Below are positions 3,445-46,125 of a stretch of 64,000 bases of DNA, piece by piece (within the stretch, counting starts at the first letter, position 1; each line of letters starts with the position of its first letter). The position numbers were made by a program, and so were the translations under genes. The DNA is from Octopus vulgaris. Taxonomy: Eukaryota. The DNA lies in contig OX597814.1 of assembly GCA_951406725.2 (NCBI GenBank), positions 43,648,001-43,712,000 on the forward strand, in the 5' to 3' direction. The notes under the pieces were generated by a model. It did no database searches, was not told the DNA's origin, and saw only the letters and a list, made by a program, of their open reading frames with translations.

Positions 3445-4717
3445 CGAGGGGCGTTCAATAAGTAATGCCCCTGACCCACTTTCCATAGCAGTAGAGCAAC
3501 GAAACTTGGCACAGTTATTAGTATTTTTATACAGAGGAACCACCCAGAGTTACGTATTTCTCCCATCGTTTGATGCGGCTCTGGAGACCGTTTTTGTAGA
3601 AGAACCCAGCTTGGTCCTCCAACCTCAACGTGACTTCAGAAATCAAGGCTGCATCATCTGGGAAACGCTTTCCTTTCAAAAACAACTTCATGATTGGGAA
3701 GAGGTGAAAATCAGAGGGTGCAAGGTCAGGAAAGTAGGGGGGATGGGGAGGAGTTCATAGCCATACGCCTGTGCTTCTGATCTGGCGACAAGCGAGTTGT
3801 GGACCGGAGCGTTGTTCTGCAGGAGGAGGATGCCTTTGCTGATCTTGCCCCGCCTCTTGATTTTGATAACTTCTCTTAATTTCCTCAAAAGTGAAGCATA
3901 ATAGGCTCCTGCCATTGTGGTACCCTTTGCCAGGAAATGTGTCATCACTACTCCGTCCTGGTCCCAGAAGACTGTGAGCATGACCTTGCCTTCTTTGGAG
4001 GGGATGAGTCATAGTACTTCCACTGAATTGACTGGGCTTTGGTCTCTGGATCATCGTGATGGACCCAGGTTTCATCCTGTGTAATCAGTCTTTTGAAAAA
4101 TGTTGACTCATCTTCTTGGCACATCTCCAAATTCACCCTCGAGCACTCGACGCGTTCTTGCTTCTGGAAAGGCGTGAGCAACCTGGGAATCCATCTGGCA
4201 GACACCTTTTGCATATGCAAATGGTGATGAATGATAGTTTCCACATACCCGGTACTAATCTTGACCTCATGGGCTATTTCGCGATGCGTTGATCTTCCAA
4301 AATGGCAGCCTCAACTTGACGGACAGATGCCTCATCAATGGCAGAAGGGGGCAACCAGATCTGGGAGCTATTTCCACAGAGTTCCGACCATGTTTGAATT
4401 CACGATGCCAGCGTTTTACAAGGTCATATGATGGGGCATCATCACCATAAGTTACTTTCATTTCATCAAAAGTCTCCCGTGGTGTGTGTCCTTTCAAATA
4501 CAAAAACCGGATCACTGCTCGACACTCAACAGGCTCCATTTCACACTTGACTCGGTTCAAACACCTGTAAATCAGAAACCACAATTAATTCAGAGCTGTA
4601 ATTTGCCACTTACTCTATAGAGATATAAATGTTTGCACATGCAATCAGCTAGATCAATTTCAGCTAGATCAAACAACTGCAAGTGGGTCAGAGGCATTAC
4701 TTATTGAACGTCCCTCG
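3445..4717 (-). mobile_element. Full-length mariner (irritans-like), 37-bp TIRs, TA TSD
   Basis: Left TIR cgaggggcgttcaataagtaatgcccctgacccactt (3445-3481) and right TIR 4681-4717 differ at 2 positions; TA at 3443-3444 and 4718-4719. Confidence 0.97.
3510..4539 (-). pseudogene. Frameshifted mariner transposase
   Basis: MEPVECRAVIRFLYLKG HTH, WIPRLL, ITQDETWVHHDDPETK, VFWDQDGVV, LLQNNAPVH spread over several frames. Confidence 0.93.
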
Positions 4718-40999: not shown

Positions 41000-42274
41000 G
41001 TGGACGACGTTCATTCTGAAGAAACTTCCCCGCTTTCCAAAAAGCTAGAAGGGAAACGTTGGGAGTTTGTAGTTTTTGAAAGAGGTTCGTTGCAGCTACC
41101 AATAGCATCAATAGTCGAAATATATAAGCTGGGGAAGATACGGACGGTCATGATGCTCAGAGAATCGAAGGATATGGAAATCAGGCGTAACCCACCAGAG
41201 GTGAAAACAGCCAGGAAGTGGAAAGCAGAAGCAGAAACTGACGACATCTTGTCTTCTCTTATACACAGCGATATGGTGGGAGCAACGCAGAACCATCGGA
41301 AAGGACTTGGTTTTGGCGCGGATCAGTTCAGACCGTTTGCAAGCATGATGCGGAGTGAACGAAGATCTGTTGTTAGCAACAGCGTCAAAACAAGAGAAGC
41401 AGAGAGAAGAGAGCTTCATTTGATCCGATGTGTTCATCAAGGTCAGATGACGAGATGGGAAGAACATGTTGTTGAGAGGAAGATAAGTTGGGATGAGATG
41501 TGGAAGTGGACGACATCTCGGCTGAGTTTCCTGATTCGTTCATCTTATGATGTTTTGCCATCACCTATGAATCTAGGAAGATGGAACCTCTTAGAGAATT
41601 ACATCTGCAAATGTGGAAAGGTCGGTACACGAAAACATTTTCTTTCCAACTGTGCATTAGCATTGAGCAGGTATACATGGAGGCACAACTTGGTCCTTAA
41701 GGTTATCTTCAATGCTATAAAGAACCAAATTCATTTCAACAACACTGAGGAAAAACCGGTGAACGTACCATTAAGAGATTCCATTACCTTCGTGCGACCA
41801 GGTCAGCGGATCCGTTACAAGAAGAAGATCAAGAAACTTCCTGAGAAAAATGAAAAGTGGAACGGCTATTGGGAGGTAACTGCAGATTTACCTGGGTGCC
41901 AGGTTTTCTTTCCCATCCCAGTTACGAAAAAACCAGGTATTTTGATGTGGTGTGAAAGAAAGAAGGTTGTAAATATAGTCGAGCTAACGGTTCCTCATGA
42001 AGATAATATGGACGCCGCTCGGGCTCGAAAATTGAACTGTTATGAAAACCTCCTCGAGGAATGTGAAGACGCAGGCTGGAAAGTGGAACATTTTCCTATC
42101 GAAGTCGGATGTAGAGGGTTTGTTGGACACAGCGTGAGACGACTGTTGTTATCGCTAGGCCTAACTCATCGTAAAGTCAATACCACCATGACTGATATCT
42201 AATCTACAGTGGAGAAGGCTAGCCACTGGATTTGGTTAAAAAGAGACTATGAGCGATGGCTAGAAGTATATTGA
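41000..42274 (+). pseudogene. HERO ORF C-terminal part (CCHC + restriction-like endonuclease)
   Basis: 400-aa open frame; premature TAA at 42200-42202 is followed in frame by STVEKASHWIWLKR...* (TGA 42272-42274); catalytic PD reads PG; no RT domain. Confidence 0.88.
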
Positions 42275-42483
42275 GTTCTTCATAACCAGCTGATCTAGCA
42301 AGCGGGGCCTCATATCAGTGAGGGGGGCCGGTGCGCATTGTTGCCGTCGAGAGGTAGGCCCCGAAACGGCGCGCATTATCTCCTGATGACCCCATACACT
42401 TGCTAGCTTCCGGTATACGGAGGTTTTAACTGGTAGCACTTGCATGTGCAAGTTGTTTGCAAGACATGAGGTGATGAATAAAT
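41076..42483 (+). mobile_element. 5'-truncated HERO-clade (RLE) non-LTR retrotransposon with 3' UTR
   Basis: LQLPIASIVE, RKWKAE, QGQMTRWE, SFLIRSSYDVLPSP.NL..W, CCHC finger CKCG..TRKHFLSNC, YTWRHNLVL, RLE motifs ELTVPHE and PIEVGCRGF; UTR ends gatgaataaa. 5' boundary approximate. Confidence 0.9.
42285..42453 (+). ncRNA. Highly structured HERO 3' UTR containing hammerhead core strands in non-canonical order
   Basis: Pairings ctagcaag/cttgctag, gggg/cccc, cctca/tgagg, ggggcc/ggcccc, ggtgcgc/gcgcatt, gccgt/acggc, gaga/tctc, cttccg/cggagg, acttgca/tgcaagt; CTGATGA at 42383-42389 and GAAA at 42363-42366. Confidence 0.65.
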
Positions 42484-43189
42484 TCTTAAAGATTCTTACT
42501 GTCTTTTTTTGTTCTCCTTGGGTTACCAAGTAACAATAAATTTGAAAAAAAGTAAAAAAATAAATTTCGTGTGGAGAGGGAGAAAAGTAAAATATTGAGA
42601 ATGTATTTTGTGAGGGAAATCCTAATCTCCTGTATCGCAAACATAGGAATCGGAAGAAATTCAGGAAACAAATAAGGCTGTGGAGCAGAAATATCACCTC
42701 GGATATGTTAGAAAGAAGAAGTAAAGGACAGGATTTTTAGGAAAATTTTCTTTTAAGTTTATATCGAAGATCAGGTTTTTTAAAATACGCTCATCACAAA
42801 CAGAAATTACACAAATTAGGCGAAAATAATGAGGGTTGAAACACATTAAATTTTACAATAAACGTTACCGTATTCTCAATATTGAGTCCTACTTGTAGTA
42901 AGCTTTCCGTAGTTATTCTTAATCTATCTTTAACACAATCCTTACTATTATAGGTAGAAATTTTGGAAAAGGAGCTAGTTGATAATATCGACCTCAGGGC
43001 GTAAATGGTACTAATTTTATCAGCCTCCAACCAATTCAAAATGGTATTGGATCTCGGCGAAATTTGTATTCAGAATATAAGATGAAATGCCGCTAACATT
43101 TTGTCCGGTTTGCAAATTATTTTTTCAAAATAAACCGTCATTTCTTCACACAAGCTCAAAACGCATACATGCACAGCATACACGTAAAC

Positions 43190-43223
43190 ATGCGTGCACA
43201 CACACACAGACACACACACACAA

Positions 43224-43285
<62 letters not shown>

Positions 43286-43380
43286 GCATGCATACATACA
43301 TGCATACATACATGCATACATAAATATATACTTGCATACACACACACGTACGCACACATATACACACAAATACATACAGT
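43190..43380. repeat. Compound (CA)n/(TA)n/(CATA)n microsatellite
   Basis: Directly visible. Confidence 0.95.
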
Positions 43381-43777
43381 CAGAAACGCACATATATTAA
43401 CACTGCCGACAACACGCAATTTATCTACATTTTTCTGGTGTCTACTATGCGATGCACTTGTATGGATTTTGAGTAAACAGAGGTTTGTTATATATTCCCT
43501 GCCAAGAAAATGGAACTGAACATGTTTTGCTTCGTATAGTTTTCCATCACTCTTGCATGAAGTGTTGTCGAATAAACAGCTTTTAGATTCACTTTCCTAA
43601 ATATACACCACTATGCTGTCTAGGCAATGTTGATAGAAATAAAATTTATGTAATAGGATATACACACATACACCTTGTTTTACATCCTTTTCAATTATTT
43701 TTGTTCAATTGAAGATTCATTGCTAAATATCTCATTATATCAGCAAGTTTATTGTTTTATAACCATTTCTTACGTTA

Positions 43778-43859
43778 CATTCTATGGTGTTTATGCTGGT
43801 TAACAAAAGTTGTAGGATACATAAATTGATATATACATATACATATGTGTGTGAATATG

Positions 43860-43918
<59 letters not shown>

Positions 43919-43959
43919 ATGTGTGTGTATACATATTAATATATATATATATATATATG

Positions 43960-44008
<49 letters not shown>

Positions 44009-46125
44009 ATATGTCTCTGTTTGGAGGTGTGTATATATTCAAACGTACATACGTATTTGCATATATTCGTATATATTGTGTTTATTTGGACCTACAACAA
44101 AGACTGTGTCCATTCAGTAAATAATATTTCAACCATCCTAACTGCAACCATCACCAGTACCATATTAAATATTTTCAGCAACAGAATTTACACTGTGACC
44201 ACTATGAGCCTATATATATTATACTCTGATATAATTTGAACACGATGAAAGAGGAGAAAATTAAATAAATAGCTATATAAATAATGAAATAGAAACCTAG
44301 TAAATCATTATGGGCCATCAATTTGTAATATCAAACCTAATATCTAACATTTAATTCTAAATAAACATAATAATGGTTGGTTTCTTTCTCTGGTTTATTT
44401 ATTTTTCTCCTAAGCCTTTCAACAACATTGTTTGAAACTGTGGGATATTATTAAATAGAGACATTTTGCTTTCTAACATATATAAATCTTATACGCATAC
44501 ATACAAATACGTGTGTGTGTATAGATAAACGATGCTACGAAAGATGATGAAATACAGGAGGCTATGTACACACGCACACACTTACACACACACATACATA
44601 CACATAGTTGAAGAGAGATGCAGATAATGTACATATGTATGAATGTATGTTCCTGTAACAATAGACACAGGTGCGCCCTCATGCATACATATATGTGTGT
44701 GTGTATGTATGAAAGTTTGTGTGTGTGCGTGTGTGAGTATTTGTGTATGAAAGTGTGTGGATATGTGTATGTGTTCCAGAAGTGATATATATTTCAGGAC
44801 TAAATATATATTTGATTTCTGTAAAACTAGATATTATTAGCTGTTCCGAATATACACTACATAGATTAAATAAAATTAAACACTGTTTTAAAATACGGAT
44901 GCTAGAAATATATTTAATACAAATATGGATATACAGTAAGACGCATATTATTTTGTTCCATTGTAAAAACTTAGCTGAAATACATTCCATCCAACACAGT
45001 ATAGTATGTTAACGTATTCACCACTTCCTATAATTACTTATACATTTTTTTTTACGTATGATAATTATTTTCAGAACACCATTGAGTAAAGTCTTTTCAA
45101 ATACAACAGCGAGGGGTAAACGTTTAATAAATGTTACACTCATGTCTATACATTCGATTCTCGTTATTCAGATCTGAATTTACTAAAATACAATAGTCAG
45201 TAGGTAACTAGAGTGAATGTAAGTAAATATGAGATGTGTCACCTGAGATTTTAGGTTTTATCAGATTTCGAAAATGTTTCTGTGTGCCCAATCTACAATA
45301 ACACGTTATTTACTTAAAATATGCTTTGAATTTATTGATCTAAAGAGGTCCCAGCATGCTCATGTTTGACATTAGTAAGAATTTAACATGAATTAGATAT
45401 TTTCAGGAATTAGGTTTTCAGGAACTTAAATTAAGTTTTGACTTTAAAAGCGTTAGAGATTACTAGTGAAAAGTACTTACGATGCCTAAACACGCAGCAT
45501 CCTCCGTCCATTTTGAATAATAAACATTCTCATTCACGTGACTCTGATCTTGAAAAAAGTTAATATGCAGGGTTATCCGTCGAAGTTGCTAGGGAAGTTT
45601 TGGATTCAGAAAGAAATTAAACGTAACGGAATATCACATGACTGATTGATGGGAATTGACATATATTTCTATTGATAGTTGACAGGCAACTTCAATCATG
45701 CTTGCTTGAAATGAAAAAAAAATGAACACATTACAAAGTTCATAGATCATCGTGAGAGATTATAGATTGGTAATTATCGGTATGCTTTCCGTACGTATTT
45801 TCGAGGAATGTGTAGTCACTCTAAGACTGAGGTACTTACTCTTGTCCCTCTACGTTATCCCATCTGAGGTTTAATATGTTACAGCAAGTGAGAGAGTGGG
45901 CTGAGCTGCCGTACGGCTGGATTTGAACGCAAACCAGTTGACTAGTGTACGCTGAAAGACAGTGCATTACTGAAAGAAACAAGGCAGTGCACACCTAAAG
46001 ATTTTAAAAGTATGAGCTTACATTGCATTCTATGGTGTTAATGCTGGTTATCGAACTACAAAAGTTGTTGGCTACATAAATTAATATATACATATACATA
46101 TGTGTGTGAATATGTTTATTTATAT
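43778..46125. repeat. Dispersed direct repeat of ~95 bp (43778-43870 and 46027-46125), each followed by (TA)n
   Basis: cattctatggtgtt.atgctggtta..acaaaagttgt.gg.tacataaatt.atatatacatatacatatgtgtgtgaatatgttt in both copies. Confidence 0.85.

Follow-up and report, generated by a model that had tools for sequence, protein, structure and literature searches.

A candidate hammerhead ribozyme of rewired strand order from HERO-like retrotransposon 3′ UTRs, and its possible part in re-closing the RNA template

A structure that contains the catalytic core of the hammerhead ribozyme was identified in the 3′ UTR of a HERO-like non-LTR retrotransposon within a 64,000-nucleotide stretch of Octopus vulgaris DNA (assembly GCA_951406725.2, contig OX597814.1, positions 43,648,001–43,712,000 of the forward strand), the whole of which is referred to here as the window. 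As judged from sequence, the motif has the features of a hammerhead core, yet it lacks the backbone linkage that defines every described hammerhead type, including type SGC. Genomic copies whose 5′ ends fall on the predicted cleavage site make cleavage in vivo at 42348|42349 very probable, and the cut RNA is probably re-closed into a ligated or nicked circle that serves as an internally primed template. We lean slightly towards the more inclusive reading, in which HERO elements would possess a seventh hammerhead topology among those found in nature, one whose backbone enters and leaves between A9 and G10.1, and would propagate by reverse-transcribing a circle from an internal priming point for more than one unit length, needing neither a promoter-defined 5′ end nor a poly(A) 3′ end.

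The motif lies in a 5′-truncated copy of an RLE element, which shows neither a poly(A) tail nor a clear target-site duplication and whose open reading frame contains a premature stop at 42200–42202, the family stop being 42272–42274. Window positions are converted to positions in the full-length unit by subtracting 38731. The family is abundant (2340 first-look candidates) and includes a full-length copy, L061, with a 3737-bp unit and a single 1091-aa ORF (P0001), in which a reverse transcriptase (RT) domain (Pfam RVT_1, E 5e-19) is followed by a CCHC knuckle and a PD-(D/E)xK endonuclease, both read from sequence; this layout fits the definition of Hero and the R2 group (PMC3636483). The Pfam scan of the protein found no GIY-YIG family, and R2 proteins gave its top PDB hits (E about 2e-17), so that the pairing of a GIY-YIG endonuclease with a telomerase-like RT, which characterizes Penelope-like elements, does not apply. 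P0001 is 38% identical over 972 aa to the Takifugu RT BAC82598.1, which we take to be HEROFr. As is typical of HERO elements, a fixed target site is lacking, with 104 distinct solo 3′ flanks sharing a TA-rich preference alone; solo copies have no poly(A) tail, and no convincing target-site duplication was found across 20 loci. The features of the window copy, all on the + strand, are as follows.

41079..42467, + strand: truncated element copy, 1389 bp, 96% identical to the full-length 3737-bp unit
41079..42274, + strand: C-terminal ORF remnant with CCHC knuckle and PD-(D/E)xK endonuclease, read from sequence
42285..42307, + strand: 5′ strands of the outer helix and closing helix (P0); 42295–302 pairs with 42399–406, and GGGG 42304–07 with CCCC 42390–93
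42308..42323, + strand: side hairpin adjoining G10.1; in most representatives a hairpin of ~13–30 nt lies between the P0 partner and G10.1
42324..42329, + strand: stem II 5′ strand GGGGCC, displaced to the 5′ side, with G10.1 at 42324
42330..42336, + strand: 5′ strand of P4, which bridges the distal ends of stems I and II; its partner is 42371–77, with pairing kept in 27–33/33 representatives per position and several pair types
42343..42353, + strand: block S, with stem III 3′ strand GCCGU 42343–47, U16.1 at 42347, C17 at 42348 and stem I 5′ strand GAGA 42349–52
42357..42370, + strand: block G, with stem II 3′ strand GGCCCC 42357–62, G12 A13 A14 A15.1 (GAAA 42363–66) and stem III 5′ strand ACGGC 42366–70
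42371..42389, + strand: P4 3′ strand, stem I 3′ strand UCUC 42379–82 and core C3-U4-G5-A6-U7-G8-A9 (CUGAUGA 42383–89)
42390..42434, + strand: 3′ strands of the closing and outer helices, including a small hairpin at 42407–22
42438..42467, + strand: terminal hairpin 42438–53 and insertion end at about 42464–70; in tandem copies the sequence runs directly into the 5′ UTR

All of the core strands that had been proposed in a preliminary description of this DNA were found in place. The predicted cut falls at 42348|42349, where 42349 is G1.1 and corresponds to unit 3618. That description gave stem I four base pairs and the I–II linker 4 nt, which holds for the window copy and not for the family: the window copy has two near-private changes, 42341 and 42378 being A and C, respectively, in 28/29 other copies each, so that the family form has a 5-bp stem I (GAGAG/CUCUC) and a 3-nt linker (GUA). 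The window motif obtained a parse score of 51, compared with a mean of 31.9 and a maximum of 39 for shuffled sequences (0/100 shuffles reached 51). Its nested folding is unremarkable (z −1.57); P0, the side hairpin, P4 and stem III are predicted and the pseudoknotted stems I and II are not, and an off-state in which the stem II 5′ strand pairs with the stem I/C3 strand is favoured. The alternative ATCAG/CTGAT rod fold suggested earlier is absent from the predicted minimum-energy fold. An Rfam scan with E up to 10 gave no match that covers the motif, and a description of the motif was not found in the literature searched, whose coverage excluded subscription journals and Repbase. Two observations were made in passing: the hairpin of the outer junction (window 42407–42422), of the form (A/U)UCC...GGAG, is conserved in a subgroup with L156–L159 and L187, and TA/CA microsatellites at window 43160–44810 produced spurious sub-threshold Rfam miRNA matches.

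Relatives were picked by protein and not by motif, which yielded 80 metagenome loci and one genome contig; 54 of these 81 loci held the C-terminus, and the 27 without a C-terminal match were left unparsed. Every one of the 46 metagenome loci with at least 180 nt past the ORF carried the motif, anchored within 400 nt in 45 and at about 420 nt in L160. Because the anchors were the core motifs CUGANGA and GAAA, with up to 1+2 mismatches permitted, weight is placed on exact matches, unconstrained bases and pairing rather than on anchoring. Exact CGAAAC together with CUGANGA occurs in 36 of 48 anchored sequences, and the statement in the preliminary description that other HERO 3′ UTRs carry CGAAAC...CUGAUGA was correct. 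Searches of the octopus genome with the protein returned at least 150 matches at 79–100% identity and 48 more, mostly overlapping, of which only the top candidates were scored, and no second, divergent HERO family was seen among the matches listed. No relatives were found among viral contigs, and prokaryote genomes gave a single one, an 809-bp contig lacking the 3′ end (L236, NZ_QYYA01000044.1), a HERO-like fragment in a bacterial assembly that is probably eukaryotic contamination.

The comparison was based on 33 representatives that are <80% identical and whose best protein segments are 31–53% identical to P0001. In the parser, a single position sets both stem I and stem III, while U16.1 and base 17 are left free. 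U16.1 is U in 33/33 representatives, and base 17 is C in 19, U in 7, A in 7 and G in none (H17 in 33/33); hence the U16.1–H17 site and the A15.1–U16.1 pair of the hammerhead are present at positions that were not constrained. U4 and A9 are found in 33/33 and G5, A6 and G8 in 32/33, with N7 variable, so that both C3-U4-G5-A6-N7-G8-A9 and G12-A13-A14-A15.1 agree with the hammerhead core, motifs that doubled as search anchors. As in a hammerhead, stems I, II and III all form, the first five pairs of each being retained in 28–33/33, and G10.1–C11.1 is G-C in 30/33. Stems I–III and P4 covary across the representatives with several pair types each, although these counts come from a pairing-seeking parser and the statistics ignore kinship among families; with that reservation, the retention of CUGANGA, GAAA and UH and the covariation of stems I–III, which the preliminary description had proposed as a check, extend across HERO-like families. 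The 3–8 pair is CG in 29, UG in 2, UA in 1 and AG in 1, and it moves from C-G through U-G to U-A inside one subgroup (U3–A8 is listed for L194 and L213; the per-representative table has one U3–A8 and two U3–G8). U3–A8 variants occur in the hammerheads of Penelope-like elements (PLEs; PMC4209133). All 100 shuffles were outscored by 32/33 representatives; the mis-anchored L184, which did not beat its shuffles (51/100), was kept in the counts of 33. The I–II linker ranges from 1 to 9 nt, P4 was found in the representatives, and the closing helix begins 0–1 nt past A9 in 30/33.

The strand order of the motif is II5′-P4-III′/UH/I′-II3′/GAAA/III-P4′-I/CUGANGA-P0′. It thus follows an S-G-C order with crossing helices and not the circular C-G-S order around a nested three-way junction that defines types I, II and III. 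The preliminary description was right that this order is not a circular permutation of those types, but non-circular hammerheads have already been published as type SGC (HRIMA-1 and variants), which cleave in vitro at 0.007–0.19 per min and depend on each of their four helices (Eckert et al., 2023; PMC10085705). The HERO-like form resembles type SGC in its S-G-C order, a short I-to-II linker (about 3 nt), a helix that connects the remaining strands of these two stems, and a full core; in addition, the bridging helix can be separated from stem III by 0 nt, as in some type-SGC RNAs. The two differ in that the stem II 5′ strand directly follows A9 in type SGC and lies 5′ of block S in the HERO-like form, in which A9 leads instead into the closing helix and hairpin. 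Block C (I strand-CUGAnGA-II strand), intact in type SGC, is consequently broken, and A9 is not covalently joined to G10.1 with at most 1–2 inserted nt, as it is in hammerheads; the closing helix and hairpin bridge the break. The ordinary type-SGC fold is not open to the HERO-like form, since the bases past A9 pair with 11.n by ≤1 bp in 27/33 representatives and reach 4 bp in a single one. The HERO-like form may be pictured as an SGC ribozyme closed end to end and then opened again between A9 and G10.1. Eckert et al. (2023; PMC10085705) assume, in the available text, that block C cannot be interrupted, and the type SGC described there comes from metatranscriptomes only, unlike the HERO-like form, which resides in animal retrotransposon DNA. 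Two earlier statements had to be corrected in this light. It was called established that an insertion between A9 and G10.1 can be tolerated, whereas for a large insertion this is not established: the available text of PMC10085705 knows none there over 1–2 nt; and the helix GGTGCGC/GCGCATT, regarded as sterically awkward, is the conserved I/II-bridging helix, which compensatory mutants show to be required in type SGC (PMC10085705).

The predicted cut is also marked in the genome. Two pattern searches for copies with a 5′ end in unit 3601–3628, an interval of 28 bases, gave 38 loci, 11 of which were removed as internal rearrangements. Thirteen of the 27 true 5′ ends begin exactly at unit 3618 (42349, G1.1), the next commonest position having 3 (binomial p 1.9e-12 for 13/27 at 1 of 28 positions), and in a control interval, unit 3633–3660, the top count was 3/23 (32 loci, 9 removed; Fisher p 0.014). 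Twelve of these 13 cut-start copies stop at the usual 3′ end and are about 120 bp long. Cut-start copies represent roughly 5% of events, as estimated from 494 anchored copies with about half of the truncations captured, and about 95% of copies pass the site unscarred (494 anchored copies versus about 25–30 estimated cut-start copies). Such crossings are accounted for equally well by uncut RNA; the earlier statement that a genomic copy spanning the site derives from uncut RNA need not hold, cut-and-rejoined RNA being also possible. Of the indels in the 23-nt gap, most (10/11) represent homopolymer slips rather than scars, and three non-run indels at the cut were observed (L237, L238 and L245), namely a 19-nt duplication ending at C17 (L237), a 1-nt insertion and loss of G1.1. 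Four contig sets presumed to be RNA provide coverage, a kind of data that cannot show ends. The reading of the motif as a rewired, pseudoknotted hammerhead is supported by the core, the NUH rule, G10.1–C11.1, the compensatory helices and the pile-up of 5′ ends at the cut. As a separate observation, T precedes the 5′ end in 11/13 cut-start copies, and insertions prefer TA-rich sites (L250–L287 and the 104 solo 3′ flanks).

The best 30 matches to the 5′ UTR were examined, and 25 of them reach 5′ UTR base 1. In each of the 25, a piece of the element's own 3′ end stands ahead of that base, joined to it at a near-invariant junction. The shortest of these upstream pieces measures 8 nt and the longest over 1499 nt (as much as 1975 nt in the set L061–L074), and the flanks 5′ of these pieces are distinct where reached, save for one duplicated pair (L124/L125). 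The two halves of an insertion share subfamily alleles in 238/248 site comparisons across 20 loci. Among metagenome loci with at least 250 nt downstream, 9/36 show the motif followed by the 5′ UTR array or the ORF start, and in L165, L167, L168 and L173 the motif lies near the contig start, ahead of the ORF. No arrays of more than two units were seen in the loci fetched. At the 3′ junctions of the 104 solo flanks, C3737 is enriched (51/104 versus 15%), and the further matches at T3738 and A3739 coincide with the TA-rich preference of the targets, so that extension into the 5′ UTR is weak once this is allowed for. In a biased sample of copies chosen for long ORFs or tandem spacing (L061–L074), 8/14 stop at unit 45–419, which suggests more termination near one full round. 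The upstream pieces of L114, L115 and L134 begin in the loop of the terminal hairpin (unit 3712–3713), a possible second stop point.

These observations are consistent with a cycle in which the HERO-like hammerhead cuts the RNA and the template is re-closed. A transcript through a source composed of a partial and a full copy would hold two ribozymes, and cutting at both would release a unit-length RNA with a 5′-OH and a 2′,3′-cyclic phosphate. As P0 and stem II, like P4 and stem III, join both sides of the cut, the cleavage products would remain attached to each other. A monomer could then re-form the ribozyme from its own two ends, and these would either be ligated, whether by the ribozyme itself or by a ligase of the host, or be held together as a nicked circle; of these forms, the covalent circle is somewhat the likelier. 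The element protein would prime about 120 nt downstream of the cut. On a nicked template, RT would sometimes run off, leaving the 120-bp copies that start at G1.1, and would otherwise pass on, a full round regenerating partial-plus-full sources.

The ribozyme might also be active without any circle, which we consider unlikely though not negligible. It would then trim or destabilise linear transcripts, or free the element from a host co-transcript in the manner of the 5′ HDV-like ribozyme of R2, and the tandems would come either from tandem sources that are read through or from an RT that, having reached the 5′ end of a linear RNA, jumps onto a 3′ end. The 120-bp copies would be products of the 3′ cleavage fragment and the unscarred crossings would represent uncut RNA, and read-through of a tandem source also yields a constant junction. 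However, if a linear RNA were processed at its 5′ end, full-length copies should begin at the upstream cut, and 0/25 do so, while 18/25 extend past it. Under read-through alone, the upstream pieces should become eroded, yet they are kept in copies 84–100% identical to the reference and in other families. End-to-end jumps by the R2 RT leave variable junctions, and such jumps should do the same here, where the junction is near-invariant.

A non-catalytic mimic of the hammerhead, serving as a platform for the element protein or for a k-turn/box-C-type protein, with the G1.1 ends stemming from stopped RT, from a protein nuclease or from a start site inside the element, appears improbable. RLE elements use 3′ UTR structures to bind protein, as is established for R2, and CUGAUGA looks like box C. 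Against this, the NUH rule (base 17 never G), the free N7, the U3–A8 covariation and G10.1–C11.1 track hammerhead catalysis and not box C, and the 5′ ends fall on the exact base that had been predicted beforehand. An RT barrier at G1.1 is not expected either, because RT, on arriving there, would find the strands upstream of G1.1 already without their partners. It is very improbable that the ribozyme acts as a dimer or in a trans complex, in which two RNAs or tandem copies would together build P4 or stem III as in minimal Penelope hammerheads: dimer cleavage is known for PLE hammerheads (PMC4209133), P4 links ends that are widely separated in the known fold, the window subfamily having 0 nt between P4 and stem III, and some P4 strands are self-complementary (L159, L167), but stem III has a full 4–6 bp, P4 is non-palindromic in most families, and a 0-nt link is likewise noted for type-SGC RNAs, whose constructs cleave during transcription (PMC10085705).

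A cut and re-closed template would have a counterpart in the circular, internally primed template proposed for Penelope elements (PMC4209133, PMC6765202), and the combination of a non-LTR element, a 3′ UTR hammerhead and partial-tandem copies parallels that model. Both groups show partial-tandem copies whose repeated part holds a hammerhead, as well as U3–A8 variants, and internal priming on a circular template is proposed for each (PMC4209133, PMC11167929, PMC6765202). PLEs encode a telomerase-like RT and a GIY-YIG nuclease and carry type I hammerheads, often minimal and dimeric, whereas the HERO-like element combines a non-LTR RT and a C-terminal RLE nuclease with a multiply pseudoknotted hammerhead. 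The PLE study, in its available text, found no RNA reads ending at the cut, while genomic 5′ ends mark the cut in the HERO-like family; mutation of the Penelope hammerhead left insertion in vitro unaffected (PMC11167929). With R2 and related elements bearing 5′ HDV-like ribozymes (PMC13708176, PMC3636483), the HERO-like element shares the R2-group protein architecture and a self-cleaving ribozyme, here a predicted one; it differs in that the ribozyme is of another class and sits in the 3′ UTR, roughly 120 nt short of where insertions end, that full-length copies do not start at the cut, and that there is no fixed target site. Retrozymes (PMC6765202; bioRxiv 10.64898/2026.07.22.740005) likewise have hammerhead-cut monomers and a proposed rolling-circle mobilisation, but are small and non-coding with ordinary type I/III hammerheads, unlike the autonomous 3.7-kb HERO-like element.

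If this interpretation is correct, the six-permutation scheme of hammerheads would be extended by breaking a linkage thought to be fixed, and a non-circular hammerhead would exist in animal genomes, where covariance models miss it. Non-LTR retrotransposons would also gain a circular-RNA life cycle, so far proposed solely for Penelope elements, and the genomic fossil record of the cut makes the circular-template model testable. A ribozyme whose products are paired through four helices would be a candidate RNA-circularising module; RLE elements are under development for gene insertion.

Several other arrangements of the element were observed. The copies L003, L009–L011, L014, L026, L027, L029 and L075 on contig C29 have an identical 3′ flank, and thus reflect segmental duplication and not independent insertions. 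Internally deleted copies (L138, L142, L146, L147, L150, L151 and L152), possibly non-autonomous short derivatives, retain about 270–850 nt of the 5′ end and about 260–620 nt of the 3′ end including the ribozyme region. In L066:872-8995, a near-full copy stands head to head with an inverted 1.76-kb 3′ piece, and another partial copy is close by. The start of the 5′ UTR (L061:1440-1535) contains five consecutive short hairpins, each with a GAAAGA loop closed by G-C, an array that possibly acts as a multivalent protein-binding or translation element; related hairpin arrays occur 3′ of the motif in distant families (L161, L171, L172, L181, L189, L194 and L233).
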